Positions 10,046 through 60,919 of a stretch of 63,321 nucleotides of DNA are shown piece after piece. Each line of letters starts with the position of its first letter. Within the stretch, counting starts at the first letter, position 1. The DNA lies in assembly GCA_050251945.1 (NCBI GenBank), contig JBFWLW010000015.1, positions 1 through 63,321 of the forward strand. The letters are read 5' to 3'. The notes below the pieces were generated by a model. That model did not search any database and was not told where the DNA came from. It was given only the letters and a program-made list of their open reading frames with translations. Both the position numbers and the translations under genes were made by a program. The DNA comes from Deferribacterales bacterium. Its GTDB lineage: Bacteria; Chrysiogenota; Deferribacteres; Deferribacterales; Geovibrionaceae.

Positions 10046-10051
10046 ATTCAG

Positions 10052-34479: not shown

Positions 34480-34489
34480 GAAGCCCCCC

Positions 34490-35230: not shown

Positions 35231-35261
35231 AGGAACCTCCATTAGTGATAATGGAGAATAA

Positions 35262-41225: not shown

Positions 41226-42668
41226 ATGCGAAAAAAGCTATGTCTGGCAGTTTATTCCTGCCTACTGTTGTTCGCATCGGTGTACAGTGCATCCGCCTTC
41301 GAGGATAGCAGCTACACCACACCGGACAACTGGCAGCAGCAGGTGACACCCGGTCAGTTCCGCCAGAGTGTCACAGGAGTTGGTCTGACGAAAGATACTA
41401 AGATGTATCTGAGTCTGACCACAAGATATCGTCTTAAATCTAATGACTACGCTGATGACCAGGATATTTACCAATATCTCCGTGTGAGTACGGATGCGGC
41501 AAAGCTTGGCACAGGTACGATCAAGTTCTCTGCATTCGGAAGGCTTGCAGACGACATTGACGGTTTTTCTGACAGGAACTGGTCAGATAACTACTATTAC
41601 AGCCAGAAGGACGGTCTTGATACCGAACTTGAAGCAAATGACTACGCACCCCGCCTCTATCATGGTTATGTCCAGTTAGATGGAGTAGTCGGACGCTCGG
41701 TTGTAAATCTCGGCAGATTCTATCTGAATCACCTTAACACCTTCCAGCTTGACGGAGCGGATGCCGCCTACAACGTGACAGATATGGTCAGCGTATATGC
41801 ATTCGGCGGTATGCCCGTAAGCTACTATTACGACGTTGACGGCAAAGACCATGTATACGGCGGGGGCGTGTCATTGAACTACAAGGACAGCACAAAAGTT
41901 GGCGCTGAATATGCCTACCTTGATGTTCAGGATATCAACGATGACTACTCAAAGGTGAGTATAGTTCAGTCCATCCCTCACGGAACGGTAGTCCTTGGAT
42001 ATTCCCATCTCAATGATGCCGGAACGTTCAATGCCAATGCCGACTTTGAAATAGTGAAGACAAAGACACTTGTCAGCCTCGGTTACGAGGGTATGTATGA
42101 CAATGTGGACTCAGATAAGACCTATGTTGTAAACCCTCTTACTTATGCACTTTTACCTCAGAGCAAGTATAACAAGTATTCTTTCGGGGCATATCAGCCC
42201 TTTCTTAAGCACTTTATAGCAGGTGTTAACTACGAAGGCAGATCTGTACAGGGAGAAGAGAGCTTCGATAACCGTAACTATAACAGATACGGGGCAAAAT
42301 TCGATATCAACGGGCTCCCTTCCGAAAATACTTACGTATCTTTCACAGTTGACAGGTGGGACATCGACAGCACATCGGAAAGCAATGACAACAGCAAGGC
42401 TGAATATGGCGTTCAGATCGGTCAGAAGATCACTGATAAGGTTGATGTTTGGTTCGGCAGTTCATTCAACAGATATGAATACGACTACAGCACTGACAAA
42501 CGTAAGGATTCTGTGCGCTCCTATTACATAGGCGGCTCCTATCAGCCCACCGAAGTTTTCAGTGTAATGGCAGATCTGAGCAGAGAGGATACAGATTTCT
42601 ATGACGACACGGACAGCGACCTTAGCGAGAGCTACAGGGCGGAGCTCTGGGTCAGTCTGGTGTTCTAG
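41226..42668 (+). CDS. Outer-membrane beta-barrel protein, putative cytochrome-conduit porin (copy 1)
   Basis: Signal peptide; Tyr/Asp-rich amphipathic strands; C-terminal LWVSLVF; paralogous to 55732-57165. Confidence 0.75.
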   Translation: MRKKLCLAVYSCLLLFASVYSASAFEDSSYTTPDNWQQQVTPGQFRQSVTGVGLTKDTKMYLSLTTRYRLKSNDYADDQDIYQYLRVSTDAAKLGTGTIKFSAFGRLADDIDGFSDRNWSDNYYYSQKDGLDTELEANDYAPRLYHGYVQLDGVVGRSVVNLGRFYLNHLNTFQLDGADAAYNVTDMVSVYAFGGMPVSYYYDVDGKDHVYGGGVSLNYKDSTKVGAEYAYLDVQDINDDYSKVSIVQSIPHGTVVLGYSHLNDAGTFNANADFEIVKTKTLVSLGYEGMYDNVDSDKTYVVNPLTYALLPQSKYNKYSFGAYQPFLKHFIAGVNYEGRSVQGEESFDNRNYNRYGAKFDINGLPSENTYVSFTVDRWDIDSTSESNDNSKAEYGVQIGQKITDKVDVWFGSSFNRYEYDYSTDKRKDSVRSYYIGGSYQPTEVFSVMADLSREDTDFYDDTDSDLSESYRAELWVSLVF

Positions 42669-42678
42669 GGAGTAATCA

Positions 42679-43137
42679 ATGAGAAAAATATTAGCACTGA
42701 TGATAATCCTTACAGTGAGCTTTGCGGCTTATGCAGTCAGCTCCAGCAAACCGGAAAGCCATGACCTTAGCTGGATGAAGCGTCACGGTGTGGCGAGCAG
42801 GGCGAACCTTAATGAATGTCTGGAGTGTCATACAGACAAGGTGTCCTGCATCAAATGCCATCAGGAAGTAGAGCCCAGAAACCATACTAACGGCTGGGTA
42901 AAGAATGGGCACGGGCTTGAGGCGAGATGGGACAGGAACAAATGCGCACCCTGTCATACAGAGGACAGCTGCATTGAGTGTCACACGCAAACACCGCCTT
43001 CGACCCACCGCCCCGGATGGGGAGGTAAGGGGCAGAGTGTGAACAGGCACTGCACCGGATGTCACTATCCTGTACAGCAGACAGGATGTTTCACTTGCCA
43101 TAAGGTTGTTCACTCAATAAATGCTTACGGTAAATAG
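42679..43137 (+). CDS. Small periplasmic hexaheme cytochrome c (copy 1)
   Basis: Signal peptide plus six CxxCH: CLECH, CIKCH, CAPCH, CIECH, CTGCH, CFTCH. Confidence 0.92.
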   Translation: MRKILALMIILTVSFAAYAVSSSKPESHDLSWMKRHGVASRANLNECLECHTDKVSCIKCHQEVEPRNHTNGWVKNGHGLEARWDRNKCAPCHTEDSCIECHTQTPPSTHRPGWGGKGQSVNRHCTGCHYPVQQTGCFTCHKVVHSINAYGK

Positions 43138-43148
43138 GAGATTTAATT

Positions 43149-46100
43149 ATGAGTATTAAAGACTTACTTCAAAATAAACATGTATCCAGACGCAGTGTGC
43201 TTAAAATAATGTCGGCGACCGTTGCAACTGCGGCATTAGCAGGTTGCGGCGGCGGCGGTTCCAATCCGAAAGAATATCAGGTTCTGGATCCTTCAGATGA
43301 CCTCGTCTATGATAAAAGCGAAAAAATAATCCATACAACAGGGTCATATAACTGCGGTTCAAGATGTCTGCATTATGTACATATCAAGAATGGAAAAGTT
43401 GTAAGAATGACATCTGCAGGTGACAAAACCAGAGGAACGAAGGCCGACAGCGAAGCAGAGTACGATAGTTCAGAGTTCGGCAAAGAACTGGAAAAACGCG
43501 CCTGTGTCCGCTGTTACGGGGGATATCAGGGGATTCTTTACCAACCAGACAGACTCAAATACCCCATGATGAGAATAGACACAGGTAAGCCTAAAGGCGA
43601 TGTAAACAACTTCAAAAGAGTGACATGGGATGAGGCGATTGAGGCAGTCGCTACAAGATTGAAAGAAGCATATGATAAATCTGCCTCTCTTGGATATGCC
43701 CCTATCGTTTCCAGGTATTTTTACAGTCTGATGATGATGACAGCTTACGGTCAGCAGTTGCCATATATAAAACTGGCTGGAAACGAGTCATACGGCGGCG
43801 CTGACCTCGGATGTTACGACACAGTTGGAAACTCTGCCAGAATCAACAGCAGGACAGACAGATATAATACTAAATTTATGCTCACATGGGCTTTGGATGT
43901 TACCAAGACCACCTATTGGCAGGTACACACCCATTTCATGAATCAGAAGATAAAAGAAAAAGCACATGGCGACATCCCTATGGTAGTTATCTCTTCAATA
44001 TATTCCGATGCGGCGGCTATGCTTACCACAGGTGTTCCCGGGTATCAGTATTCCATCAACGGGACAAACAAACAGGTTGATATCCCCGGCTGGATCGCGT
44101 GCAGACCGTCAACAGACAGTGCCTTAGCGATAGGGATGCATTATGTCATTTATAAGAATCAGAGAATGGATAATGACTTCATGCAGCAGACCACTACAGC
44201 AGACCAATCTCAACGAAAATGTTTCGGATACTGGAAAAATGACGAGGTGATCAGCCAAGCTCATGATTCCGATGGTTCAGGCACTTCAAGATTCGGTGTC
44301 AGAACGATCAACAGAGACACTATTCCTGCCTCGGCTCCTTACAACGCCACCGGAGCTGAAATCCCCAGTGAAACCATTTTGAAGGGATTGGCTTTCAAGG
44401 TGCCTGCAGGAGAATCTTTTGAAGAATATCTGTTGAGCCGTGAGGTCGAATGGGGCGGAGCAACTCCTTTAGCCGGAACAGAAACTTATAAATACAGAGA
44501 ACCTTCGACAGCTGCAACTCCGGGAGATGCAATCTATACACAGGTTCTCAGCTACATTGCATCGCTTACAGGCGTTTCTGCCGATATTATCGAAGCTCTT
44601 GCAATGAAATATTCAGAATACGCCGGACATCCTACAGATGCGGCACTTATCGAGACAGGCGGCGGCGCACAGAGGGCATGGAATGCAAGTGAATGGGTAT
44701 GGTCTCTGATAGGTCTCAGCACCGTATGCGGCTATATAAATAAGAGCGGCGGCGGAATGGCAGGGGCTTCCATGGGATTTATGCCGGAAAGCCTGTCATC
44801 TAACAGCGGAACCACCGATGTTTCATTGATAGGAGCTCTTGAAGAACCTAAAAACGGTCTGGCTCTTAACGTGGAACTCAGCGGATGGCAGAATGTCGTT
44901 ATTAACGGTAGAGACCACAGACCAGCTGATATGTTTACAAAAGACATTAATTACAGCACGGCAGGCAGGTTAACTCTCTCAGAAACCAAACCTCTTGAAG
45001 TTGATGTCATCATCCAGACCAATATTAATAATATTCAGACACACCCGAACGTGAATAAAAATATTCTTGCGGCTCAAAGTGTGTCGTCTTTTATCATAAT
45101 GGATCAGGTTATGACCCCCACAGCTCTTTTGGCAGATATCATACTGCCTGCCAGTACTCACTTTGAGAAGGAGTCATTTGTAGTTCCAACCAACACGTCA
45201 ATGATAGATTTCTACCACAGAGAGAAAGCGATAGACTTCATGTACGATACTCTGCCTGAACATGAAATTGCACAAAGGATCGTCGATAAACTCAATGAAC
45301 TGATGGGAACAGCCATCCCTGCTTATGTGTTTGCACCTTATGACACACGCTCCGAGGATGATTACAACAGCCTCCAGATCACTGATTATTACAGAGCAAA
45401 TGTGAATTCGAGTGCGACCCTGCCCTCTGCCGACGAGTTACGAGAGCTTGGTCAGTTCACTCTGCAGGTTCCCAAAAGTAATCCTTTAATACCCATGGCA
45501 GGGGATCTGATTTCCGCCGGAGATTTTGATACATCCACAGGCTTCATCAATTTTTACTCCCCTCTCAGAGCTATGCGCCCTGCAAGAGTTGTTACTGATA
45601 AAAATATATCCGGCGATACATCCGGAATATTCCCGCCTGTATATTATCCCGGTGGCTGGCGTAACGCTACATTATGCTATCAGCCTATGCTGCATGGCAG
45701 AGAGACGTATTTTGACAACGGGAACCCCATGACAGGCAACTTTACCGGATTCAAATCACCATTGAGCAGCAGAACATACAAAATGACTTATATGACCAAC
45801 AAATCGAGAAACAGAGGGCACACAGTATTCGACAGCGTCGCAGCAATCAAAGACATGTTTCCCCAGATGGCTAAAATGAATCCAGCCACGGCTGCGGAAA
45901 GAGGCATCAGTGAAGGTGATATGGTCTATGTTTACAATGACAGAGGCTGTATGAAAATTCCCGCACATCTCACACATGAGATATTGCCCGGAATTGTCAG
46001 CATTGAACATGGTGCATGGTACAGAGCCCACCCCACAGAACGGGTGCAAGTCTGGATGCAGGACGGAAGCGACCAAAGCCAGCCGGATGCTTTCAATGTA

Positions 46101-46238
46101 CGCACAGTGCCCGTGGACATAGGCGGAACTGATAATGTCCTCACAAACGATTTCTTCGGAGAAGACACCATGACCGCAGCAGGCGCTGTTCCTGCACAGT
46201 CCGGTCCTTGCGAAGTTAGCTTAACAAAACCTGAATAA
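43149..46238 (+). CDS. DmsA-like Mo-bisPGD oxidoreductase, Tat lipoprotein (copy 1)
   Basis: SRRSVLK Tat motif; LAGC lipobox; NCGSRC; DRLKYPM; ADIILPA; RGHT; C-terminal binding domain. Confidence 0.88.
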   Translation: MSIKDLLQNKHVSRRSVLKIMSATVATAALAGCGGGGSNPKEYQVLDPSDDLVYDKSEKIIHTTGSYNCGSRCLHYVHIKNGKVVRMTSAGDKTRGTKADSEAEYDSSEFGKELEKRACVRCYGGYQGILYQPDRLKYPMMRIDTGKPKGDVNNFKRVTWDEAIEAVATRLKEAYDKSASLGYAPIVSRYFYSLMMMTAYGQQLPYIKLAGNESYGGADLGCYDTVGNSARINSRTDRYNTKFMLTWALDVTKTTYWQVHTHFMNQKIKEKAHGDIPMVVISSIYSDAAAMLTTGVPGYQYSINGTNKQVDIPGWIACRPSTDSALAIGMHYVIYKNQRMDNDFMQQTTTADQSQRKCFGYWKNDEVISQAHDSDGSGTSRFGVRTINRDTIPASAPYNATGAEIPSETILKGLAFKVPAGESFEEYLLSREVEWGGATPLAGTETYKYREPSTAATPGDAIYTQVLSYIASLTGVSADIIEALAMKYSEYAGHPTDAALIETGGGAQRAWNASEWVWSLIGLSTVCGYINKSGGGMAGASMGFMPESLSSNSGTTDVSLIGALEEPKNGLALNVELSGWQNVVINGRDHRPADMFTKDINYSTAGRLTLSETKPLEVDVIIQTNINNIQTHPNVNKNILAAQSVSSFIIMDQVMTPTALLADIILPASTHFEKESFVVPTNTSMIDFYHREKAIDFMYDTLPEHEIAQRIVDKLNELMGTAIPAYVFAPYDTRSEDDYNSLQITDYYRANVNSSATLPSADELRELGQFTLQVPKSNPLIPMAGDLISAGDFDTSTGFINFYSPLRAMRPARVVTDKNISGDTSGIFPPVYYPGGWRNATLCYQPMLHGRETYFDNGNPMTGNFTGFKSPLSSRTYKMTYMTNKSRNRGHTVFDSVAAIKDMFPQMAKMNPATAAERGISEGDMVYVYNDRGCMKIPAHLTHEILPGIVSIEHGAWYRAHPTERVQVWMQDGSDQSQPDAFNVRTVPVDIGGTDNVLTNDFFGEDTMTAAGAVPAQSGPCEVSLTKPE

Positions 46239-46249
46239 CGGAGGTCAAT

Positions 46250-46984
46250 ATGAGTAATTGGGGATTCTATTTCAATCAAGATAGATGTTTTGGCTGTAAT
46301 ACCTGCGCAACAGCCTGTAAAAACTGGAACGAAGCACGCCGGGGCGATGCCGAAATTAATGTCATTGACGATCCTGAAAGCTATATGTCTGAAGTCGGCG
46401 AACAGGATACAGGCAGTTATTATATTAATCCTGAAACCGGAGCTAATAACTACGAACTGTATCGTAAATATTATATGAAAGAGGATTGGAGACGTGTTTC
46501 CATTGAAATGACAGGTTCGGTATCTGAAAACAATGATGGTACATTTTCATCGAACATGGACAAGAGATATGTTTCTATTTCGTGCAATCATTGTGATCAG
46601 CCGGCATGTGTTGACGCGTGCCCGATGGGTATCATAGTTAAAAGCAAAGAAACGGGGCTTGTCCTTGTGAATAACGAAAGCTGCATCTCCTGCGGGAAAT
46701 GTAAGGACGCTTGTCCTTGGGATGCACCGCAATTCTATGATGCAAACTATACAACCTATGCACTAAACGACCCTGCCAGACCAAAAATGACAAAATGCAC
46801 TGGGTGCCTCGACAGAATTAAAGAGGGTCTCCGCCCTGCCTGTGTTGCAGCATGCTTTAACAGAGCGCTTGATGCGGGTCCGATTGATGAGCTTAAGAGT
46901 AAATATCCGGCTGCAACGGAAACGGTTTCCGGCTTTAACAGAGCCAGCACAAGCCCGAACATAATCTTCAAAGCGAAAAGCTGA
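46250..46984 (+). CDS. DmsB-like 4x[4Fe-4S] subunit
   Basis: GFYFNQDRCFGCNTC, SCNHCDQPAC, CISCGKC..ACPWDAPQ and KCTGC..R motifs. Confidence 0.92.
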   Translation: MSNWGFYFNQDRCFGCNTCATACKNWNEARRGDAEINVIDDPESYMSEVGEQDTGSYYINPETGANNYELYRKYYMKEDWRRVSIEMTGSVSENNDGTFSSNMDKRYVSISCNHCDQPACVDACPMGIIVKSKETGLVLVNNESCISCGKCKDACPWDAPQFYDANYTTYALNDPARPKMTKCTGCLDRIKEGLRPACVAACFNRALDAGPIDELKSKYPAATETVSGFNRASTSPNIIFKAKS

Positions 46985-46995
46985 GGATCAGAGTT

Positions 46996-47679
46996 ATGGA
47001 ATTACTTAAAGAGTTTATGCGTATCAGAGGAGATATTTACAACGTATTGTCAGTTCCTTTCCATAAGGAATTGTCAGTTGAATATACGGAAGTATTAAAA
47101 AAATATCTCCCGGTCATCAGGGAATTAAGTGTTGCATCAGGTGACATGCAATTCAGAGATGCAGTAGACAGTTTCGCAGAGATACTGAATATAGAATTTG
47201 ACAAAGACCGTTATGATGGTGAATTTGCGAAGCTCTTTCTGGGAGTGAACAAAGCTTCTTATACCGGACATACCGTTACACCTCACGAGTCTGTTTTTCT
47301 GTCTCATACGCGCCTTGTTATGCAGGAACAATGGGATGAGGTGGTTGAAATATACTATAATAACGGTCTGGGCAAAGAAAAGAAATTCAAAGAACCTGAA
47401 GATCATATCTCAGCTGAAATGAGCTTTATGGCTCATATGTCGGCAAAAACAGCCGAATGTGTCAATTCGGATGACTCTTCTGGTTTGGCTAAGTGTTTGG
47501 AGACTCAGGTGATTTTTTTAAAAGAGCATCTCTGTTCTTGGATTCATTTGCTTGCAGATGATATCCGGCGCAGCACAGAAATAGATTTTTACAGATGCTT
47601 TTCGACGCTGGTTGAATGCTTCATTGAATCAGATCACAACACATTAGAACAATTAAAAGAAGAGTCTATCACGGTCTAA
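46996..47679 (+). CDS. TorD/DmsD-family redox enzyme maturation protein
   Basis: PHESVF, EPEDHISAE and FLKEHL..W motifs. Confidence 0.88.
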   Translation: MELLKEFMRIRGDIYNVLSVPFHKELSVEYTEVLKKYLPVIRELSVASGDMQFRDAVDSFAEILNIEFDKDRYDGEFAKLFLGVNKASYTGHTVTPHESVFLSHTRLVMQEQWDEVVEIYYNNGLGKEKKFKEPEDHISAEMSFMAHMSAKTAECVNSDDSSGLAKCLETQVIFLKEHLCSWIHLLADDIRRSTEIDFYRCFSTLVECFIESDHNTLEQLKEESITV

Positions 47680-47697
47680 CAGACAAACAATTGTCAT

Positions 47698-47730
47698 GCG
47701 CAGCAGCTTTTAGCTGCTGCGCTTTCTTTT
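47698..47730. terminator. Terminator hairpin between convergent genes
   Basis: gcgcagcagc-tttta-gctgctgcgc followed by tttctttt. Confidence 0.7.
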
Positions 47731-47749
47731 GTTATCTTTTCTTAAAATA

Positions 47750-48445
47750 TTAAAGCATAATCATTTCAGGATCTTCAATTTTGTACCCTCTGCCCCTTAT
47801 CGTATATAGAAGCTGTTTGTTAAACGGTTTGTCCACGCGGGTTCTGAGAGTCCAGAAATGTGCTTTTAATGCATCGCTTACCGGCGGCTGATCACCCCAT
47901 AGGTCATATTCCAGTTCCTCGCGTGAAACAAATCCGGGGGATTTTTCTACCAGTCTATGAAGAATACGGAAACAAGCAGAAGAAAGGCGGATACTATGCC
48001 CGCCGCGCTTCACTGCCCCGTTTCCGGGATCAAGAGTTAGGTCTGCAACTTTAAATTCTCCGGAAAAGGATTGTATCCGGCGGCGTTCCAGAACTGCCTG
48101 AACCCTAACAAAAAGCTCTTGCGGTTTGAAAGGTTTAGTTATGTAGTCATCGGCTCCGCATTTGAAACCGTTTAATACATCCGAAATATCCACGCGCTCG
48201 GTCAGGATAACAACAGGTATCTTAAGGTGCAATATTTGCCGGATCTTTGAACAGATATCAAAACCATTCATTCTGCGAAGGTTTATATCCAAAACAATCA
48301 CATCATAGGAGTGTTCTCTCAAAAGAGAGAGCGCAAGTTGTCCTGATGTCGCAAAGTCAGTACAACATTTTCTGGTTTCCATAAAATCGATGATACTCTC
48401 CGCCAGATTATAATCATCCTCAATAAGAAGAACTTTTAGAGACAT
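47750..48445 (-). CDS. OmpR-family response regulator (no adjacent kinase)
   Basis: LLIEDD, VLDINL, GADDYITKPF and wHTH YTIRGRGY motifs; start may be 48445 or 48469. Confidence 0.88.
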   Translation of the reverse strand: MSLKVLLIEDDYNLAESIIDFMETRKCCTDFATSGQLALSLLREHSYDVIVLDINLRRMNGFDICSKIRQILHLKIPVVILTERVDISDVLNGFKCGADDYITKPFKPQELFVRVQAVLERRRIQSFSGEFKVADLTLDPGNGAVKRGGHSIRLSSACFRILHRLVEKSPGFVSREELEYDLWGDQPPVSDALKAHFWTLRTRVDKPFNKQLLYTIRGRGYKIEDPEMIML

Positions 48446-48560
48446 ATTTTCAAACAATATTTCACACATCAGAATACCCGAAGATCTTTATTATGAATTA
48501 TTGGAAGCCGCCCCGGACAATACCTGAGAGCGGCTTTTCAGGGACACCTACAAGGAGTAT

Positions 48561-49604
48561 CTATCGCACGCTAATTTTATCATCCACTGAAATACAGCCG
48601 CTCATGCACGCCTTAACGCATACTCCGCAGCCGTGGCAATAAAAAGGGTTATGGTTAAAACCACCGCCAGCAGACTCTTTCAAAGCGCCAGTGGGACACA
48701 GCTTTATACAGATGCCGCATCCTGAACATTTTTCTTTATCAATATTCAGGCTGCACAAAGGAATTTTTCTATCGAAACGGATATCTCTTCTGATCAAGTG
48801 CTTAATTGAAGAAAACGTTTCTCTGAAAAGAGCAACCCGTTGTGAAAGTTCGTTTTTGACATTAAAATCAACTGCAGAATTCTCTTTAACCGTGAAAGCA
48901 TCCGTAATGTCATTCATTCCTATAGCAAATTCACGTCCGACTGTTTTAAAAAAATCTCTCCTGCCTAAAACCTGATTCTTTAATCTGGCCGATGCACTAC
49001 GTTCCGCAAAACCACTGGCAGACAATACTATCCCGTCTTCATCACAACATCTTTCAACAAAGCATTTGTCAAGACTTGACACAAAGTTATCAAGAGAATC
49101 CAACTGCTCAATAAGGCAATTAACTCCGTCAGAATGATTGCAGGAACTACAGTCACCAAATTTAAAGACAATTTTCTTTATTCCTTTCGTAAGCCAATAA
49201 AGAATGTGAACCGCATGTATACTGCCGACACAGTTGACTGCTTTGGTATTTTTAGCTTTGACTGCTTTACATTTTATAAACAGTTCTCCATTGTCCAACG
49301 AATCAATTATGCTGTCACACCATTTTTTTTCTGACATACCGGAGCGTTTAAAAGCTCCGTAGCTGCAGGCAGAGATACACTTTTCGCATCCTGTACATTT
49401 GGAGCTGTCCACAGAAATCCCTGTTCCCGGTCGACCTATTTTTATTGCATCAGCTTTGCATACAGCTTTACAGTCTCGGCATTCCACTTTTTTATGAAAC
49501 ATCGCAATGCAATGGTTGGATTCAGGTTTAACCGGAGAATAGCCTGCACTTTGTATTCCTCTGAATAGCCCTATCATTCTAACCTCAGTAACCCGCTGAG
49601 ACAC
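48561..49604 (-). CDS. Polyferredoxin-like 4Fe-4S protein
   Basis: CRDCKAVC, CTGCEKCISAC, CSGCGICIKLCP and CHGCGVCVKAC motifs; internal RRDFF. Confidence 0.85.
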   Translation of the reverse strand: MSQRVTEVRMIGLFRGIQSAGYSPVKPESNHCIAMFHKKVECRDCKAVCKADAIKIGRPGTGISVDSSKCTGCEKCISACSYGAFKRSGMSEKKWCDSIIDSLDNGELFIKCKAVKAKNTKAVNCVGSIHAVHILYWLTKGIKKIVFKFGDCSSCNHSDGVNCLIEQLDSLDNFVSSLDKCFVERCCDEDGIVLSASGFAERSASARLKNQVLGRRDFFKTVGREFAIGMNDITDAFTVKENSAVDFNVKNELSQRVALFRETFSSIKHLIRRDIRFDRKIPLCSLNIDKEKCSGCGICIKLCPTGALKESAGGGFNHNPFYCHGCGVCVKACMSGCISVDDKISVR

Positions 49605-50248
49605 TCCATATCGGCTTTAATCAGAATATACGGCAGCATTGCCAATGCGTTATAAATACTGCCTGCAGCCGACATCTTGAGCAGCTTTTTTCCGAAAGAA
49701 TCCAGCCAGTTAAGCATATGGTCTCTGATAAAATCAGATTGTATAATAAGAGATTCATCTGATATCTCTGAACTGCTTCTCTTTTGAATCATGGTGCAGA
49801 TGAAAAGACATTGTATTTCAAGGGAATCCTCAAGCTTACCCGTTCCTTCCGGCAGACTGAATCCGTGTTTACGATAGTATTTTCTGCAATTCTCCCACTG
49901 CTCACGCTTTATCAGATTTTTAACGGATAACACCGATGAAGCAGAGTCAGGAACTTTATTGACTCCCAATACAAAATGTTTTGTATGCTCTCTCGCCATC
50001 TCAAGCTGAAAATCGGCATCATCTTTCTTCCCGTAATTAACGTCTATCCATGTATTCATTTTTGTTACTGTTTCTTCTGCAATTATCTTTTCTTTCTCAC
50101 CAAATGTTGCATAATAAAGCATCAAAAGGTTTCTCAGAACCTCCACCCGTTCATATGTTAAAACCGAACTGAAGAGCGTGGACAGTTCTGAATAAAGATT
50201 GAACCTGCCCTTCATAAACAAATCCATATCAATTGCTTCAACATTCAT
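49574..50248 (-). CDS. Divergent TorD/DmsD-family chaperone
   Basis: VPDSASS, LEDSLEIQ and Q.DFIRDHMLNW resemble REMP motifs. Confidence 0.7.
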   Translation of the reverse strand: MNVEAIDMDLFMKGRFNLYSELSTLFSSVLTYERVEVLRNLLMLYYATFGEKEKIIAEETVTKMNTWIDVNYGKKDDADFQLEMAREHTKHFVLGVNKVPDSASSVLSVKNLIKREQWENCRKYYRKHGFSLPEGTGKLEDSLEIQCLFICTMIQKRSSSEISDESLIIQSDFIRDHMLNWLDSFGKKLLKMSAAGSIYNALAMLPYILIKADMECLSGLLRLE

Positions 50249-51512
50249 TATCCGCTCCTTTTATGACAACTTTTTCAAGATGGATCTCTCTGATGTACTT
50301 GTATCCGGAATATTCCGCCACACAGTAGGAAACTGCGGCTTCGGCATCTCTTTCCGGTCTGATAAGTCCCATGTCCTTCACTCTGAACTCAATACTGCTT
50401 TCGGATCCGTCAAAGAAGTAATAGAGTACCCCCTTTCTGTCCAATGCTTCCCTTATGAGCAGGGCGTCTTCTCCCCATGCTTTTACGGATTTTATGAAAA
50501 AATCATCTTCGTCAAACATTTCATAAGTGCTGAGTTTAGTTCCGGCATTCTGAAAATAGATCTGGGATGTCAGTTTGTTTTCGAGTGAGCAATAGTGTAC
50601 GCCTATTCTGAAATTGTTCGTCAGGGCGTATCTGATACATTCAAGTGCGGTTATCTCACTGCCGTCAACAGGAAGCCCGCCTGCATAATCGTATTTATAT
50701 AACACCCTGTAAGGGCGATGTTTTATTCTGTAGCCTCTGTCCCTGTAATCCTGCGGTCTCTGCCACGGGAAAAGGAACTCAAGCAGATTAACGCTGAATA
50801 TTCCGCAACGTTCCATAACATCCAGAAGCGAAGTCATTTCACCATATGAATCGGGAAGAACAGGCATCTCAACGGTCACATGATTTATATACCCTTTCGC
50901 AAGCAGAAGTTTCTTTTCCAATTCTCCGCTGTCATACTTTCCATCCGAATCCTTGACGGATATCCGCACCTCATCCAGACAGCCGGACAGTTTTTTTAAA
51001 ATATCCACCGTCATAAGGTCGCCGTTGGTGTAGAGCCTTGTCTCTGTTTTGCGGTCGTGCCGCTTTACTGTGCGGAAAAAATCTATACATTCATCGGGGT
51101 AAAGCAGCGGTTCGCCGCCTGTAACAGCAACAGACCTGACCTTTCCGGTTTTTTCGGCAAAAGTCTTAAATTCATTCTTTATATTAAAAACTGTGTTAAT
51201 TTTCTGATCATAGTTTTCCTGATTCCTGTTGGAACAGAAATAACAGTCTCTGTTGCAGTCCAGAGAAATGATGAATGTTTTTGCACCCATACCCGTTCTG
51301 CAATGATCGCAGGCTCTGGATCGCCTGTTTACTATCACGCTTTTGGAGCCTCCGCATACTGAGCCGCCCAAAGCTTTAATTTCAGCAATAAGATTTTCAG
51401 TCTCAGCTTTCCTGTCGTCAGCAAAATCCAGTCCTTCATTACGGACAGCTTTTTCAAATTCACAATAAATACGTTCATATCTGTTGATTTCTTTGTTTAT
51501 CATATCAATCAC
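50238..51512 (-). CDS. Radical SAM protein of unknown function
   Basis: CNRDCYFC CxxxCxxC; TGGEPL; LYTNG; extra CDHC and HYCS motifs. Confidence 0.88.
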   Translation of the reverse strand: MIDMINKEINRYERIYCEFEKAVRNEGLDFADDRKAETENLIAEIKALGGSVCGGSKSVIVNRRSRACDHCRTGMGAKTFIISLDCNRDCYFCSNRNQENYDQKINTVFNIKNEFKTFAEKTGKVRSVAVTGGEPLLYPDECIDFFRTVKRHDRKTETRLYTNGDLMTVDILKKLSGCLDEVRISVKDSDGKYDSGELEKKLLLAKGYINHVTVEMPVLPDSYGEMTSLLDVMERCGIFSVNLLEFLFPWQRPQDYRDRGYRIKHRPYRVLYKYDYAGGLPVDGSEITALECIRYALTNNFRIGVHYCSLENKLTSQIYFQNAGTKLSTYEMFDEDDFFIKSVKAWGEDALLIREALDRKGVLYYFFDGSESSIEFRVKDMGLIRPERDAEAAVSYCVAEYSGYKYIREIHLEKVVIKGADNEC

Positions 51513-51562
51513 AACTTTTTAATCCGGAGGCAGGCTGCCCCGCCTCCGGTAAGTACAAATTT

Positions 51563-52171
51563 CTATTTACGTTTAAATATTATGGAAGGTTCAAGATCCT
51601 TTCCAAGTGTTGAACTCGCAGCGTTTACCGCCTGAGTCGGATAACCGGTAACAGTTGACACCGTATCGGAATATTTTGATTTCAGATCTTCAAGAACTCC
51701 GAAATCAATTGCCCTCTGAGGACAAGCCCCAACACATGCCGTCTGCTTATCAGCCGCCACTCTGTCCCAGCACGCTGTGCATTTCTGCATGGGATGGTCA
51801 ACATTCCATGAATCCGATTTCTCCGGTTCCTGTGTGTCGTTTGCGAACTGAGGTGCTCCGAAAGGACAGGCAGCAAGGCACGCTTTACATGCAATGCAGG
51901 CATCTCTGTCAACAATAACGATACCGTCCTCATCTCTTTTGTATATGGCACCCATAGGGCAAACGCTTACACATGCCGGATTTGCACAATGGTTGCAGCC
52001 CATGGTAAGCTGATACACCTGCAGATTGGGGTAGCCCCCCACTTCTGTTTCTGTTCTTCTGCGCCAGAAGGCAGAACCGGCGTTTACACTGTTCCAGTCT
52101 TTGCAGGCAACGAGACATGCGTCACAGCCGATACATCTTGTCTGATCAAAGTAAAATCCTTTTTGTGACAT
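51563..52171 (-). CDS. DmsB-like 4x[4Fe-4S] subunit (copy 2)
   Basis: GFYFDQTRCIGCDAC..ACKD, GCNHCANPAC, CIACKAC..ACPFGAPQ and KCTAC motifs. Confidence 0.92.
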   Translation of the reverse strand: MSQKGFYFDQTRCIGCDACLVACKDWNSVNAGSAFWRRRTETEVGGYPNLQVYQLTMGCNHCANPACVSVCPMGAIYKRDEDGIVIVDRDACIACKACLAACPFGAPQFANDTQEPEKSDSWNVDHPMQKCTACWDRVAADKQTACVGACPQRAIDFGVLEDLKSKYSDTVSTVTGYPTQAVNAASSTLGKDLEPSIIFKRK

Positions 52172-52183
52172 TTTGAACTCCCC

Positions 52184-55100
52184 TTACGCCTTCTCAATTT
52201 TCAAACGGTCATCACTGCTCATAGACATACCGAACGCAATACGTGACGGTCTGCCGGATGAAAGAGAGTTAGTGGCACCGCCAATATCTATACTGTTCGC
52301 GTTCACGCTGAACCATCCGCCATCGCCTATTCCGGCATTATATGGAGCCATTCTGTTTGTAAAACGAACAGAAGCATACAAGGCTCCTCTTGAGTTGGAT
52401 ACCTTCACTCTGTCCCCTTCTGCAACACCGAGTTCTGAAGCATGTACAGGGTTCAGATATACAGGTTCATAGATATCATCATCCCAAACTCCATCCGTAT
52501 AACTTCTTGAAGGATCAAGATATGCTCGTTCGCCCTTTGAATTACGTTTATAGAGTTCATCCAGCAGGCTGGCGTTGCCCATTGTTGAGTGAGCCCTATA
52601 GTTGAAGTGTCCGGTCTGCTTTTTAAATATGTACCCTTTGGCTGTGAGACCGAGGAGGTCAGGGTGCGAATCGTCCGCGTGCATCGCCTCCACCGCAGGA
52701 ATATACATCGGAATGGGATAAACGAATCTGCGGCTTGTTGAATTTGCAGATGTTGAAGCGGTGTATATATGTCCGCTGTTTTTGAGTACAGCCGATCCGT
52801 CGGTATCGGTTGTCACTGTATCCAAACTGGACTGGGCAGCCTCATAATCCTCAAGCATAGCCTGATAGTATGCCTCAACCTTTCCTGACATTGTGTTGAG
52901 AGGATTCGTAGCAGGATCAGTTATAAAGTCTTCTTTAGCAATACGCTTAACTTTGTTAGGCCGCTGTTCGAGCATATTGACTCCGCCAACAAGCTGTATT
53001 GCGTCCCAGTCCTGATCTATCTGACCTTCGCTGTAACCTTTGTTCCAGTTATATTCCGACCATTCATAATCAGTGTTTACCACTGTGTTTGTTCCGTCAC
53101 CGACTGTTTTAAACTCCTCTTCTTTGCCCCATGCTGCGGCAATTCTTCTGGATATCTCAAATTCGTTGAGAGCTTCTCCGGGAGCATCGGTGATTTTAGG
53201 CATAACAAGTGCTTCGGCAGTAAGCCAGCCGCATGTTTCACCCCATTTCTCACCGGGTCCCGCACAGGGAAGGACATAATCGGATATCAGAGAACTTGCC
53301 GTGAAGAACAGATCGCCAGTGAGGATAAGCTCAACATTATAATTTCCGTTTCCGTCTTTCGCAGTACAAACCTCAACTATCTCGTTGGAATTGCCTGTCT
53401 GGTTGACAAAGTTGCCTCCAAAGCAGAAAAGTCCTTTTATGGGAGTTGTTACAGTGTTCGATCTGCCGTAATTCCATTTTGAAGTGTTTGATGTTCCGGC
53501 ACATCTCACATAATCGACCCAAACGGGAAGCGAAAGACCGTTCATCATGATCACATTACACAATGGGTTTGTTCTGGCAGTGTTGCCCACATAAGGTCCA
53601 AGCTCTCCCCCTTGAAGTGTCAGCTTGGTCATATCATATGAATCTGCTGCAATGCTTGAGGAACCGGGATTATTGCCATTGAGAGCGACCTTATCACTCA
53701 TTGTACCGGGGTATTTATAATTTACTTCATGAGAAAATCCATAGCTTCTTCCCTCGACACCAATGTTCTTTGTGACAGCAGACAGGACAGGTCCGAGGTT
53801 TACAGGCATATCGCCTTCGGTATGACGCTGAAGACCGCCTGAAACCCAGGTTGTGACCTTAGTTTTGACATACATTTCAGCAAGTTCTCTGATTTTATCA
53901 GCAGAAACGCCTGTAATTTTTGCCGCCCATTCCGGTGTTTTTGGTATCTGACCATAGCAGGGAGCAGTTTTTCCATAAAGACCGTCAGTAGTGGGAACGT
54001 TGTAGCCGATTGTGTCAGGATAAACGGACACACTCTGGTTAACTGTTGTTCCCGCTGTCATATTCGTGTATGCGGCTGCGCCGGAAGACATAACCGCATT
54101 GGTAAGCCTGTCGTCAGTTCCCATGATATATGCTGAAAGTGAAGCACCTGCGGGCACCTGATAAGCTGTTGCATTTGCATTTATATCTGCATAGTAATGC
54201 TTGGGGTTAGTGTCATCAAAAAAACCGTGAACATATTTTCTGATGAATTCTTCGTCAAGCCACGGATCAGAAAGCAGATTTCCCGATTCATCCCATGTAT
54301 TCACTATCATCTCATGTAACATTGCAAGCATCAGAGCAGCATCTGTTGTTCCTGTTATTCCCACATAGTCATCCGCAAAGGCTTCTGCTGTGGGAGTAAA
54401 TCTGGGATCAATAACGGTGACCTTGACCCCTTTTTCTCTGGCATTGGTGATATACCATGCTGTCTGCGGTCCGACTCTTGCTTCTGCAGGGTTAAACGCC
54501 CACAGGACAAGATTGTCGGAGTTTTCAATATCAGCCCTGTTGTTTGCCACTCGCAGCGCAACTGATGTTGCGGTTTCCTGTGCAAACCCGTCGTGGTCAA
54601 CAAAAAAATATGAATACGTGTGCTGCGGATAGCTGAGGTCGAGAACCCATTGCACAGGACTGCAGTCAGAACCGAGCAATTTAGTCAGGTTCGCTATTGT
54701 GTTGCCCTGGGATGTTCTGTCTGAAGGAGCAAGGCAGTTGTAAAATGTTGCTCCGCCGTAAGTTGTATAAACATCTTGCATTTTGGCGGCTATTTCGGAT
54801 ATCGCCTGATCCCATGATATCTCCACGAAACCGGTGATATCTCCCCTTTCTTTTGTTTGTTTAAGCGGTTTTGTAAGCCTGTCGTTGCGATACCACCAGT
54901 CGGTTTTTGCTCTGCATCTCTGGCAGGAGCGTATCTGAGCTTTGCCGGCAAAAACGTCTCCGTCCTCTCTGTCCTCATCAGTTACGATCCTTTTTACAAC
55001 ACCCTCTTCCACATAATATTTGCTGACGCATCCGCCGCCGCAGTTATGGGGGGTTGATCCGAGAATATATTTTCCGCTGACATCGGGCGGCTGAAGGTTA

Positions 55101-55240
55101 GGGTCTGATTCGTCAAAGTACGTTTTTGTCCCGCTTCCACCGCAGCCTGCGAGGGTGGCGGCAGCAACAGCCGCAGACATCCCCTGAAGAACCGAACGTC
55201 TGGTTACTTTTTTATCTTTTAATATTTCTGTGACTTTCAT
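52184..55240 (-). CDS. DmsA-like Mo-bisPGD oxidoreductase, Tat lipoprotein (copy 2)
   Basis: TRRSVLQ Tat motif; LAGC; HNCGGGC; IDPRFT; GTTDAAL; KTPEWAAKITG; RAHST. Confidence 0.88.
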   Translation of the reverse strand: MKVTEILKDKKVTRRSVLQGMSAAVAAATLAGCGGSGTKTYFDESDPNLQPPDVSGKYILGSTPHNCGGGCVSKYYVEEGVVKRIVTDEDREDGDVFAGKAQIRSCQRCRAKTDWWYRNDRLTKPLKQTKERGDITGFVEISWDQAISEIAAKMQDVYTTYGGATFYNCLAPSDRTSQGNTIANLTKLLGSDCSPVQWVLDLSYPQHTYSYFFVDHDGFAQETATSVALRVANNRADIENSDNLVLWAFNPAEARVGPQTAWYITNAREKGVKVTVIDPRFTPTAEAFADDYVGITGTTDAALMLAMLHEMIVNTWDESGNLLSDPWLDEEFIRKYVHGFFDDTNPKHYYADINANATAYQVPAGASLSAYIMGTDDRLTNAVMSSGAAAYTNMTAGTTVNQSVSVYPDTIGYNVPTTDGLYGKTAPCYGQIPKTPEWAAKITGVSADKIRELAEMYVKTKVTTWVSGGLQRHTEGDMPVNLGPVLSAVTKNIGVEGRSYGFSHEVNYKYPGTMSDKVALNGNNPGSSSIAADSYDMTKLTLQGGELGPYVGNTARTNPLCNVIMMNGLSLPVWVDYVRCAGTSNTSKWNYGRSNTVTTPIKGLFCFGGNFVNQTGNSNEIVEVCTAKDGNGNYNVELILTGDLFFTASSLISDYVLPCAGPGEKWGETCGWLTAEALVMPKITDAPGEALNEFEISRRIAAAWGKEEEFKTVGDGTNTVVNTDYEWSEYNWNKGYSEGQIDQDWDAIQLVGGVNMLEQRPNKVKRIAKEDFITDPATNPLNTMSGKVEAYYQAMLEDYEAAQSSLDTVTTDTDGSAVLKNSGHIYTASTSANSTSRRFVYPIPMYIPAVEAMHADDSHPDLLGLTAKGYIFKKQTGHFNYRAHSTMGNASLLDELYKRNSKGERAYLDPSRSYTDGVWDDDIYEPVYLNPVHASELGVAEGDRVKVSNSRGALYASVRFTNRMAPYNAGIGDGGWFSVNANSIDIGGATNSLSSGRPSRIAFGMSMSSDDRLKIEKA

Positions 55241-55257
55241 GGTTATCTCCATATCTG

Positions 55258-55722
55258 CTATTTACTGTAACTTGAAGGACTGTGACTCGTTTCGTGACAG
55301 GTGCCGCAGGTTGTTTCCTGCACGGGGTAATGGCAGCTGCCGCAGTGCCTGTTCTGGCTGTCGCCCTCCCCTCCCCAACCGGGACGGTGGGTTATGGGCG
55401 GCGTCGACTTGTGACACTCGGTACACGAATCCTCTTTATGGCACACCAGACAGCTCTCCCTGTCCCATCTCGCCTTGTACGCATGGGTCAGACGCTTCCA
55501 AGAACCATTGTGACTGCGCGGCGCTACCTCCTGATGGCAGGTGATACACTCCACCCTGTCCGTGTGGCAGTCTTTACAGCTTTCAGGATCAGACACTGAT
55601 GCCTGTCCGTGAAGCTTCATCCAATCGGCTGTATGGGTCTCGGGTTTATTGCTCTGGTATGCATACGCAGCGGTAAAAACTGCAAACAGAAGAAATAGTC
55701 CTGCTATAGTTATCTTTCTCAT
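55258..55722 (-). CDS. Small periplasmic hexaheme cytochrome c (copy 2)
   Basis: Signal peptide plus CKDCH, CITCH, CLVCH, CTECH, CGSCH, CGTCH. Confidence 0.92.
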   Translation of the reverse strand: MRKITIAGLFLLFAVFTAAYAYQSNKPETHTADWMKLHGQASVSDPESCKDCHTDRVECITCHQEVAPRSHNGSWKRLTHAYKARWDRESCLVCHKEDSCTECHKSTPPITHRPGWGGEGDSQNRHCGSCHYPVQETTCGTCHETSHSPSSYSK

Positions 55723-55731
55723 CGCTGCTCC

Positions 55732-57165
55732 TTATATTGATATATTAAGCCAGACCTCGGCAAGAAGGTTCTGGTCGAAATCGGAAGAGTCACGTTCCAG
55801 TATCTCACTCTTCTCAAGACTCACATCGCCTGTGATACTGATACGATTGTTCAGAGTGTACTGACAGCCTAGATAATGGGTCTGGATCCAGTCCTTTGTC
55901 TCGTCGTCTTCGACATCATACTCGAATCGCTCGAACCTTGTACCAAGCCATATGTCCAGATTGTCGGATACGACCTGTGTCAGCTGACCGCCGAACGTTA
56001 CGCTTTTATCTGATTTGCCATACGATGTGCTGTCAACATCCCAGTAATCCACATTGAAAGAGATATAGGTGTTTTTGGACGGAATCCTTGCAAGGTCGAG
56101 ATAGGCTGTGTATTTCTTGTAATCACGGTTATCAAGTTCGTAGCCGTTGGCATTTTTATACTCAGCCCCGACACCGACTACAACGTGTTCTGTTATTCCC
56201 TGAGAAATCCTCACTTTAACCTTTTTGTAATCCCCGTAAGGATACAGGGTGTACGTCAGAGGATTAGATACATAGTACCCGTTCTCTTTACCGATGGAAT
56301 CAAGCAGTTCCTCATAATTAACTGACAAAGTCGTTTTGGTCGGGTTATAACGGTAGACTCCACCGAGCTTATAGTAGCCGTCACTGTCTACCTGTCCGTA
56401 CTCGCCATATACTGAAGAACCGTTCAAAGAATAATCGGCGCGAACTTTCTGAAGGTCTTTTTTGTCATCTGATATATCAAGTCCGCTGAACACTCCTCTG
56501 AGTTTTAGATTGTTCACCGGTGCCAGCTCAAACCCTCCGCCGTAGACACTGTCATCATCAGTATCTACATAAAAGGAAACAGGACGGCCGCCGAATGCGA
56601 AAAGTTTTACCTTATTGTCAAGAAAGGATAACTGGGCATCGGCTCCGTCGAGCTGGAAAGTATCAATACGGTCTACATAAATACGCCCGAGAGTGAGTTC
56701 CGTATTCTTAACCACTCCGGAAAATTTCAGATATCCCTGATAAAGGCGTGACGCGGATTCGTTGTCGTCAGTTTCAGCGTCGAGGATATCGTCGTAATAA
56801 TAATATCTGTTCTCTCCCCAGTGTTCTCCGTTTCTGCCGTCAAGATCATGAGCAGCCCGGAAAAACAGGGCTCCGGACACCGTACCTGAACCAAGTTTTG
56901 CATCAGAGTAACGCATCCGTAAATACTGGTAGATATTCTGGTCGTTGGCATAGTCGTTGACCAGATATCTGTATCTGGTCGTGAGACTCATATCCATACT
57001 GCCGCCGAGAATACCATGCTGAACCGCCTGCGTCTTAAATCCGTCAGCCGTCAGATGCTGTGACCACGAATCAGGTGTCGTGTAGTCGGCATCTTCAAGT
57101 CCTCCGGCAAATATTGTGCAGGGAAGCAGCAACAATGAAAACATCAGAACAAAAAAATGCTTCAT
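55732..57165 (-). CDS. Outer-membrane beta-barrel protein, putative cytochrome-conduit porin (copy 2)
   Basis: Signal peptide; shares YTTPD.W, SLTTRYR, IYQYLR, TFQLDGADA and NPLTY with copy 1. Confidence 0.75.
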   Translation of the reverse strand: MKHFFVLMFSLLLLPCTIFAGGLEDADYTTPDSWSQHLTADGFKTQAVQHGILGGSMDMSLTTRYRYLVNDYANDQNIYQYLRMRYSDAKLGSGTVSGALFFRAAHDLDGRNGEHWGENRYYYYDDILDAETDDNESASRLYQGYLKFSGVVKNTELTLGRIYVDRIDTFQLDGADAQLSFLDNKVKLFAFGGRPVSFYVDTDDDSVYGGGFELAPVNNLKLRGVFSGLDISDDKKDLQKVRADYSLNGSSVYGEYGQVDSDGYYKLGGVYRYNPTKTTLSVNYEELLDSIGKENGYYVSNPLTYTLYPYGDYKKVKVRISQGITEHVVVGVGAEYKNANGYELDNRDYKKYTAYLDLARIPSKNTYISFNVDYWDVDSTSYGKSDKSVTFGGQLTQVVSDNLDIWLGTRFERFEYDVEDDETKDWIQTHYLGCQYTLNNRISITGDVSLEKSEILERDSSDFDQNLLAEVWLNISI

Positions 57166-60519: not shown

Positions 60520-60525
60520 GTTACC

Positions 60526-60906
60526 CTACTTCTTTTTAATTACGGCTTTGGCGGCGGCTTCTGCCGTACCTTTAAACGTTGCGGAAGTCATCCCTTTGGA
60601 TTTCAGAAATCCTTTGAACCTTTCGCCCGGAAAACTCTCTGCCGCAAAGACCTTAACACCCTTCTCCCTCAGCATGTTAATAGCCATGGGACCTGCGCCG
60701 GCTTCACCCTTGTAAGGGTTTGCGATAGTTTCCAGATATGTACCGTTTTCATCGTAAATAATGAAGAACGGTGCCTGTCCCGGGGTATTGCTCATGGCGG
60801 ACGATGGTTTGTTTCCGTTTGCTGCCGCAGCAAGATAAGGCGAACCCGCCCCAAAAACAACGGATGAAACAAGCATTGATAACAGTATAAAAAGTAACTT
60901 TTTCAT
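60526..60906 (-). CDS. NifB/NifX-like (FeMo-cofactor-binding fold) protein with signal peptide
   Basis: GQAPFFIIYD, IANP, GAG and L..KGV....A..FPG motifs. Confidence 0.7.
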   Translation of the reverse strand: MKKLLFILLSMLVSSVVFGAGSPYLAAAANGNKPSSAMSNTPGQAPFFIIYDENGTYLETIANPYKGEAGAGPMAINMLREKGVKVFAAESFPGERFKGFLKSKGMTSATFKGTAEAAAKAVIKKK

Positions 60907-60919
60907 AAAAACACCTCTT

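Follow-up and report, generated by a model that had tools for sequence, protein, structure and literature searches.

The DNA analyzed here, hereafter the window, is the entire 63,321-nucleotide contig C15 (JBFWLW010000015.1) of a Deferribacterales bacterium, whose 3.07-Mb genome is assembled in 26 contigs (GCA_050251945.1). It carries two gene modules, A and B, each encoding a predicted outer-membrane barrel, a small six-haem c-type cytochrome and a molybdoenzyme of the DmsAB type. Our preferred reading, which we regard as probable, is that a 22-strand barrel encloses the six-haem cytochrome as a minimal outer-membrane wire, and that this wire feeds a lipid-anchored DmsAB-type enzyme, likely located at the cell surface.

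An earlier note on this DNA, made from the sequence alone, described two convergent operons, at 41226-47679 on the forward strand and at 57165-48561 on the reverse strand, sharing the order barrel, cytochrome with six CxxCH motifs, DmsA-like enzyme with a twin-arginine translocation (Tat) signal and an LAGC lipobox, and DmsB. The open reading frames (ORFs), their translations and family scans (Pfam and NCBIfam, E <= 0.01) bear out both the operons and the gene order (Table 1). A TorD-like chaperone gene is present in both operons as well, and three genes of module B had been absent from that list, namely those for a radical S-adenosylmethionine (SAM) protein, the TorD-like chaperone and a polyferredoxin. 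The enzyme N-termini read ...SRRSVLK...ALAGC/GGGGS in module A and ...TRRSVLQ...TLAGC/GGSG in module B. As previously stated, there is no NrfD/DmsC membrane anchor among the window ORFs of at least 120 amino acids (aa) in the family scans; the three NrfD matches of the genome are all on other contigs (C1, C2, C20). A third module (C) was found on contig C11 of the same genome, with barrel, cytochrome, DmsA, DmsB and DmsD genes. Its cytochrome has five CxxCH motifs and one CxxxCH motif, and its DmsA (900 aa) has a Tat signal and the lipobox TVGC, a DmsA-like gene with Tat signal and lipobox being present in all three modules of the genome. The kit is no plasmid peculiarity, since one module is on contig C11 and the others of its kind are spread over the phylum (see below).

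Neither barrel matched any Pfam or NCBIfam family in these scans, and a sequence-profile search of the PDB with the barrel gave no match. The AlphaFold2 (AF2) model of barrel A, obtained from a 37-sequence alignment, had a predicted local distance difference test score (pLDDT) of 79.3 and a predicted template modelling (TM) score of 0.72. Its secondary-structure list contains 22 long strands, and the model thus agrees with the earlier view of the 480-aa proteins as beta-barrels. Turns of 2-6 residues are on one face of the model and long loops (111-142, 291-313) on the opposite face. When a structural aligner was run against 48,161 PDB representatives, the top matches were the 22-strand barrels of TonB-dependent transporters (5t3r_D, Z 17.8, root mean square deviation 4.2, 376 aligned; BtuB, Z 17.1), and MtrB (6r2q_B) ranked 15 (Z 15.1, root mean square deviation 6.4 A, 342 aligned). 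Foldseek against the PDB retrieved only generic barrels of 16-24 strands (TM 0.30-0.47), with 18-strand substrate channels at the top. The relatives of the barrel in UniRef are labelled 'alginate export domain-containing'. A barrel profile searched against 1.84 billion representatives gave 558 matches at E <= 1e-3, 347 at E <= 1e-10 and 47 at E <= 1e-30. Twenty-four of the 558 distant relatives were scanned and none passed the Pfam cut-off for any barrel family, one of them reaching 17.1 bits for MtrB_PioB, under the 23-bit cut-off. The 20 clusters of the wider family that were looked up carry only the name 'hypothetical protein', and one of them was sourced from Brocadiales/Planctomycetota. 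In the ESM Atlas, the wider family is represented by unnamed clusters from Deferribacterota, Acidobacteriota and Nitrospirota.

In the cytochrome, the six haem sites and six other histidines are invariant across an alignment of 27 sequences, which suggests that the six haems are bis-His ligated. The AF2 model of the cytochrome alone, without haems, had a pLDDT of 53.8, too low for a fold search, and a PDB profile search returned no MtrA chain, the best match being to zinc-ribbon proteins (E 0.033). The complex of barrel A (residues 25-480) and its cytochrome (residues 20-152) was predicted with four of the six haems and alongside three controls. The interface score (ipSAE, interaction prediction score from aligned errors) was 0.88, 0.88 and 0.89, against 0.00 for the best of the three controls. 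The runs gave 249-279 contacts, a partner pLDDT of 67-68 and a contact agreement of at least 81% with one another. The ipSAE mark is reached by 116 of 157 solved complexes and by 2 of 215 mismatched pairs, figures that serve as a rough guide only, given our own alignments and the four haems, and resemblance to solved complexes can account for a pass. The interface predicted with confidence is made up of alternating residues in almost every strand, the loops 128-133, 199-202, 299-312 and 347-350 and the N-terminal residues 28-47 of the barrel; in these models it is the barrel lumen. Whether the cytochrome is threaded through the barrel had been put forward as a question for structure prediction, and the cytochrome is indeed placed inside the lumen. 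The predicted complex and the alignments together show that the invariant T32-P33-D34 of the barrel contacts the invariant H28/D29/W32 of the cytochrome. Residue 38 of the cytochrome touches barrel residues 256/271, near the turn face, and residue 84 touches 352/380, on the loop face. In outer-membrane barrels, termini and short turns usually face the periplasm. Taken with this rule, the two sets of contacts suggest that the cytochrome chain has its N-terminal end at the periplasmic mouth and proceeds towards the extracellular one. MtrA is described as running from the periplasmic to the extracellular side in the same sense (PMC7198977).

The cytochrome profile matched in 43 of 68 Deferribacterota genomes, strongly (best E <= 1e-40) in 35 and weakly in the other 8, with up to seven strong copies per genome, four of these in tandem. 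A locus scan with the cytochrome alignment yielded 9 loci. For the neighbourhood survey, 40 neighbourhoods were fetched and mapped with hidden Markov models; they contain 47 distinct cytochrome genes in 22 genomes, one cytochrome ORF of locus L064 being left out. A barrel gene is located directly upstream on the same strand for 46 of the 47 (the exception is L081), and a DmsA-family gene within four genes for 40, including L050, where the sole DmsA-family gene is TorA-like and has no lipobox. At three loci (L060, L065, L083) the barrel-cytochrome pair is followed by small lipoprotein c-type cytochromes rather than DmsAB (L060:8814-9617; L065:9144-9662 and 9742-10815; L083:6796-7686 and 7697-8215), which have weak, sub-threshold matches to MtrC/MtrF domain II/IV (E about 1e-3). 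A lipobox is present in 34 of the 35 DmsA-like proteins that are longer than 850 aa and have an RR motif, and each of these 34 is encoded beside a barrel or cytochrome gene; only the window's TtrA-like enzyme, unaccompanied by a barrel, is without a lipobox. The lipobox is likewise absent from four TorA-like neighbours (791-818 aa). Hexahaem homologues are also named in Geobacter sp. FeAm09, and a metagenome scan seeded with that protein gave three loci, all Deferribacteres-type modules with the same kit. From these neighbourhoods, the kit recurs across the phylum, including in the mouse-gut bacterium Mucispirillum.

Two genomes with several modules allowed a comparison of paralogues: G023, with four tandem modules (L048/L049), and G030, with five (L052-L055). 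Identity within these genomes is 97-100% among the barrels, apart from one that is split into two ORFs (80%), and 99-100% among the cytochromes. Modules that share an enzyme type are 93-100% identical in the first 60 DmsA residues, 87-100% in DmsB and only 45-63% in the remainder of DmsA. One module of G030 combines the same barrel and cytochrome with a DmsA only 24-26% and a DmsB only 38-39% identical to the others. Among the three modules of the window's genome, every part has diverged. As read from the paralogues of G023 and G030, the conduit evolves in concert around a diversifying catalytic head, and barrel and cytochrome would constitute a generic socket for variable heads.

That the enzyme is exposed at the surface is suggested by four kinds of evidence. 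First, the six residues after the lipid-bearing Cys in the surveyed lipobox enzymes are 47% Gly and 16% Ser, which fits surface sorting, as Gly/Ser enrichment marks surface lipoproteins of Shewanella according to an unpublished remark cited in PMC3223724. Second, the predicted wire reaches the extracellular loops. Third, sister modules encode lipoprotein cytochromes. Fourth, a pattern of G tracts was observed in a Mucispirillum-like lineage, the cytochrome of which shares 99% identity with a named protein of Mucispirillum schaedleri ASF457. There, DmsA-like genes contain a tract of 8 to 10 G (G8-G10) about 13 codons after the lipid Cys (peptide ...IIYGGG; L056-L059, L066, L069-L072, L074-L076, L087; e.g. 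L056:15454, L057:1983), the reading frame being intact in 5 loci and shifted at the tract in about 8. Of all runs of at least seven G in the surveyed loci, 14 of 32 are at this post-lipobox spot of DmsA. Such a pattern is typical of phase-variable surface proteins and makes the tracts candidates for phase variation, or for homopolymer sequencing error. Tracts of nine G are also found inside barrel genes (L060:7467, L065:8096, L083:9270).

Several observations weigh against a surface-exposed enzyme fed by a complete wire. A Tat lipoprotein need not be surface-exposed and can be periplasmic, and the arsenate reductase of Shewanella is listed as one too (PMC3223724). Surface export in Shewanella requires the type II secretion system (PMC3223724), and the only secretin of our genome is of the STN/PilQ-MshL kind. 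No match to GspD (TIGR02517) exceeded the cut-off in this genome, and in the phylum GspD is present in 53 of the 68 genomes, those of all six congeners among them (E about 1e-130). When the genome was searched by tblastn with GspD, GspE and GspF of a congener, only paralogues with 23-40% identity were recovered. A contig missing from the 26-contig assembly is a possible cause of this absence. On the side of the wire, residues 106-152 of the cytochrome, which bear haems 5 and 6, are outside the confident contacts; with four of six haems modelled, the protruding end is inferred from a few listed pairs. Also, the high complex score may be in part a memory of the solved MtrAB structure, despite the lack of sequence likeness. 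Finally, no redox partner is encoded near 4 of the 47 cytochrome genes, those of L079, L080 (at a contig end), L081 and L084. Concerning the secretin, we also noted that the genome is without the GspD/E/F cluster together with a surrounding 16-kb region carried by a congener (L094, G034:C42). GspD was considered as a predictor of the modules and set aside, as it does not track with them: congeners G032 and G035 have GspD without modules.

The missing secretin, the possible periplasmic fate of Tat lipoproteins and the uncertain placement of haems 5 and 6 would all suit an arrangement in which the complex forms in the outer membrane but DmsAB sits on its periplasmic face, docked at the periplasmic end of the cytochrome. 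The barrel would then be mainly an anchor, a relic of a porin-cytochrome ancestor. We consider this arrangement unlikely, while giving it more weight than any other alternative, because it leaves four haems inside a membrane-spanning barrel without a function and because the predicted contacts extend to the long extracellular loops. In addition, the lipoprotein cytochromes of the sister modules are the partner type of known surface conduits, and the Gly/Ser-rich N-termini of the lipoproteins match surface sorting.

The label 'alginate export domain-containing' and the 18-strand substrate channels retrieved by Foldseek could instead indicate that barrel and cytochrome have separate jobs, the barrel being a porin for substrate or product and the six-haem protein a soluble periplasmic shuttle that replaces DmsC and carries electrons from a quinol dehydrogenase to a periplasmic DmsAB. 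This appears improbable in view of the gap between the complex score and its best control, with an interface that spans the lumen. Barrels that are 97-100% identical serve enzymes with identities of only 24-63%; the barrel thus does not vary with enzyme specificity, as a substrate-specific porin would be expected to. The same barrel type also pairs with lipoprotein cytochromes, which need no small-molecule channel, and it is remotely related to the barrel of a multihaem cluster described below.

Dehydrogenases are among the members of the DMSO (dimethyl sulfoxide) reductase family, and wires of the porin-cytochrome type can run in either direction. A reverse flow towards the respiratory chain, with the enzymes oxidizing a substrate in the periplasm or outside the cell or with the wire drawing in external electrons, has these two precedents on its side (for the wires, e.g. 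MtoAB/PioAB; PMC5566968), but is very improbable, as the closest named families are reductases (dmsA_ynfE, TorA, bisC), the named carriers respire anaerobically, and up to seven modules per genome fit a range of electron acceptors.

If the barrel and cytochrome do form an outer-membrane wire for a surface enzyme, electrons from the quinol pool would be passed on by a quinol dehydrogenase of the inner membrane whose gene lies outside the modules, which themselves encode none. Candidates for this input are an 11-haem membrane-anchored cytochrome of the NapC/NirT family (496 aa, contig C5), the cytochrome b561 and multihaem genes of contig C8 and the three NrfD-type genes. The electrons would cross the periplasm to haem 1 at the periplasmic mouth of the barrel, pass along the six presumably bis-His haems to the extracellular mouth, and from there reach the iron-sulfur clusters of DmsB and then the molybdenum site of DmsA, where a substrate such as an S- or N-oxide or an oxyanion would be reduced outside the cell.

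Concerning the enzymes, the DmsA-like proteins of modules A and B scored 215.7 and 325.4 bits against TIGR02166 (dmsA_ynfE), both under the 777.7 cut-off, and that of module C passed it with 887.4 bits. The best solved relative of the module A enzyme is the Rhodobacter DMSO reductase (1eu1, E 2.1e-27). Judged by these matches, the module A and B enzymes belong to the DMSO-reductase superfamily. The claim that the two modules are paralogous stands for the barrels (39% identity) and the cytochromes (56%), but not along the catalytic subunits, whose alignable parts are the N-terminal ~177 residues (34% identity) and short patches. By eye, the N-terminal FS0 iron-sulfur motif C-x3-C-x3-C is seen in the module C enzyme (CNVNCGSNC, L008:9091-11793), and the enzymes of modules A (..YNCGSRC) and B (..HNCGGGC) lack its first Cys. 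The radical SAM protein of module B has homologues of 421-442 aa encoded between DmsB and TorD at L054, L061-L064, L085, L086, L091 and L092, and a polyferredoxin homologue (335-358 aa) closes the same module type in other genomes; the two always occur together in this type. Another module type has a B12-binding radical SAM protein of 773-780 aa (L051:12840-15182, L052:2821-5142), accompanied at L051 by a B12-domain protein of ~590 aa. The radical SAM proteins and the polyferredoxin are possible maturases of the enzymes. A TorA-like enzyme without lipobox (791-818 aa) and a small mono-haem cytochrome resembling the C-terminal part of TorC repeatedly adjoin the modules (L008:14698-17639, L050, L063, L085).

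More broadly, and with somewhat less than even confidence, we propose that Deferribacterota respire many soluble acceptors outside the cell via a universal socket, a 22-strand barrel with a six-haem wire that would be the smallest trans-outer-membrane conduit known, fitted with interchangeable heads that are either Tat-lipoprotein molybdoenzymes or small lipoprotein cytochromes and are phase-switched by poly-G tracts in Mucispirillum. To our knowledge, only one lineage-specific case of a molybdoenzyme wired to a trans-outer-membrane cytochrome was available until now, that of the Shewanella-type DmsEFAB. The modules would be a second set of parts, unrelated in sequence to DmsEFAB, about half its size, present up to seven times per genome and phylum-wide. 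If so, extracellular reduction of S- and N-oxides or oxyanions would be a general strategy and not an oddity. A minimal conduit of about 130 mature cytochrome residues, 6 haems and a 455-residue barrel would also suit structural work and engineering. Moreover, a concrete hypothesis is offered for the many unassigned 'DMSO reductases' found in Deferribacteres that respire selenate and arsenate and in Mucispirillum schaedleri. In the latter, an uncharacterised DMSO-reductase-like system is described as induced in gut inflammation (PMC5285517), and its tie to the modules is hypothetical.

Table 1. Genes of modules A and B and adjoining regulators in the window.
Feature	Position	Strand	Basis
Module A outer-membrane barrel, 480 aa, Sec signal ...SASA/FED	41226..42668	+	no Pfam/NCBIfam family; 22 strands predicted by AF2
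Module A six-haem c-type cytochrome, 152 aa, Sec signal AYA/V, without lipobox	42679..43137	+	six CxxCH
Module A DmsA-like enzyme, 1029 aa, Tat + lipobox LAGC	43149..46238	+	PF00384/PF01568
Module A DmsB-like four-cluster ferredoxin subunit	46250..46984	+	Fer4_11; TIGR02951 159.3 bits, cut-off 214.1
Module A TorD/DmsD-type chaperone	46996..47679	+	PF02613 88.2 bits, above cut-off
Module B barrel, 477 aa; ATG at 57165, longest ORF from TTG at 57189	55732..57165	-	39% identical to barrel A
Module B six-haem cytochrome, 154 aa	55258..55722	-	six CxxCH; Sec signal, without lipobox
Module B DmsA-like enzyme, 1022 aa, Tat + LAGC	52184..55252	-	PF00384/PF01568
Module B DmsB-like subunit	51563..52171	-	TIGR02951 170.9 bits, cut-off 214.1
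Module B radical SAM protein, 424 aa, candidate maturase	50238..51512	-	PF04055
Module B TorD-like chaperone	49574..50248	-	PF02613 43.6 bits
Module B polyferredoxin, 347 aa	48561..49604	-	several Fer4 families
LuxR-type autoinducer-binding regulator, upstream of module A	40171..40914	-	Autoind_bind + GerE
OmpR-type response regulator between both modules, possible regulator	47750..48469	-	Response_reg + Trans_reg_C
TetR-family regulator, divergent from module B	57371..57979	+	TetR_N

The closest named relative of the barrel protein is from Seleniivibrio woodruffii (88% identity). The ends of C15 overlap (1-513 and 62809-63321, 98.8% identity over ~513 bases), and the contig encodes ParA, ParB and a DnaA-domain protein. 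From these features, C15 is probably a circular replicon of ~62.8 kb, and the description of the modules as plasmid-borne is plausible. A megablast search of a plasmid collection with module A gave zero matches. Plasmid-like cargo of the window includes an AbiEii-type toxin gene, a resolvase (36996-37820) and a Fic protein (39041-40162); plasmid-like stretches besides the contig ends are at 6687-10045 and 11019-11903. A TtrA-like molybdoenzyme is encoded at 31366-35278 on the reverse strand as a 1088-aa ORF with a Tat motif and without lipobox (NF011567, 447.5 bits, under the 1750 cut-off). Its companions are a TtrB-like subunit, a 136-aa ORF and an adjoining sigma-54 response regulator, without barrel or cytochrome. 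Adjoining module B, a reverse-strand cluster (58565-62874) encodes a 411-aa protein with a weak Wzi-like match, a lipoprotein-sorting-type protein (LolA_like), a 126-aa ORF, and a MacB/FtsX permease with an ATPase of the ATP-binding cassette type; this cluster is not seen beside the module of a close relative at L085. A regulator resembling the OmpR-type one between modules A and B likewise adjoins module C.

Concerning the origin of the kit, a multihaem cluster of the same genome (contig C8, 14694-31569; L090) is informative. It encodes lipoprotein cytochromes with 8, 7 and 9 CxxCH motifs, a 28-haem protein (1083 aa), a 414-aa barrel without Pfam family, an adjacent 7-haem cytochrome and a cytochrome-b561-type membrane protein, and from this gene content looks like a classical extracellular electron transfer cluster. 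With hhalign, the module barrel aligned to the C8 barrel with 88% probability (E 3.1e-6, 317 columns), and the six-haem cytochrome to the 7-haem cytochrome with 97.2% (E 3.3e-11, 80 columns covering haems 1-4). The module barrel and cytochrome are thus remote relatives of the adjacent C8 pair, and an independent evolution of the kit, as first suggested, is doubtful. It was more likely derived from existing porin-cytochrome stock, and we read it as a reduced, diverged branch of a large uncurated superfamily of porin-cytochrome barrels. Outer-membrane conduits of Geobacter are described as a barrel, a periplasmic multihaem cytochrome and a redox lipoprotein (bioRxiv 10.1101/169086), and the same three parts are the constant theme of our modules. 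As in porin-cytochrome conduits, a redox lipoprotein partner is encoded and the cytochrome is predicted inside the barrel.

Other comparisons place the modules among known systems. In the Geobacter porin-cytochrome (Pcc) and Ext conduits, a barrel of 400-odd residues is likewise associated with a small periplasmic multihaem cytochrome and redox lipoproteins (OmbB-OmaB-OmcB; OmbB and OmaB were compared by description only). The partner there is a cytochrome, whereas it is a molybdoenzyme here. OmbB/OmaB-type Pcc clusters are described in Denitrovibrio acetiphilus and Ca. Kuenenia, with one per non-Geobacter genome (PMC4245776), against up to seven modules per genome here. Two further candidates were set aside: ExtI of Geobacter, described as an OprP-like 45-kDa porin, the window barrels having no such Pfam match, and PCC3/PCC4, described with much larger porins. 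The MtrCAB, MtoAB and PioAB conduits (6R2Q) have a barrel-sheathed cytochrome with a periplasmic N-terminus and a lipoprotein redox partner, as predicted here. However, these conduits have no detectable sequence relationship with the modules, MtrB matches barrel A in structure less well than unrelated 22-strand barrels do, and the wire there has ten haems instead of six. The E. coli systems DmsABC and YnfEFGH share subunits of the DmsA, DmsB and DmsD types with the modules, which differ in having no DmsC/YnfH anchor and in having a lipobox after the Tat signal; the module A and B enzymes are also far under the subfamily cut-off, with about 200 extra residues.

The closest functional counterpart proposed by the earlier note was DmsEFAB of Shewanella, and the idea of the same logic with different parts holds as a prediction. 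A search of full-text literature, with most subscription journals and supplements outside it, returned no account of a barrel/six-haem pair linked to DmsAB-type lipoproteins. In Shewanella, DmsE is described as a decahaem cytochrome 64% identical to the 333-aa MtrA, DmsF as a 662-aa MtrB paralogue, and DmsAB as the extracellular catalytic part (PMC3282943; PMC3223724; PMC7198977), DmsA being a Tat lipoprotein exported by type II secretion (PMC3223724). As an extracellular DMSO/iodate reductase, DmsEFAB of S. oneidensis resembles our modules in its barrel, in the cytochrome inside it (predicted here), in its Tat-lipoprotein DmsA and DmsB, in having no DmsC, and in its TorD/DmsD-type chaperones. 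The parts differ. The type II secretin that Shewanella uses was not found in our genome. In agreement with the earlier statement that no resemblance to MtrA or MtrB was obvious, the Pfam scan and the PDB profile searches gave no such match. The barrels, at 480 and 477 aa, are outside the MtrB/PioB/DmsF family (PF11854; about 650-700 aa, 26 strands), and the cytochromes, with six CxxCH in 152 and 154 aa, are outside the decahaem MtrA/DmsE family (ten CxxCH, about 300-330 aa). Thus, where Shewanella combines a 662-aa barrel of the MtrB family (26 strands in MtrB) with a decahaem DmsE, the modules combine a 480-aa barrel of 22 predicted strands with a cytochrome of six haems and about 133 mature residues.

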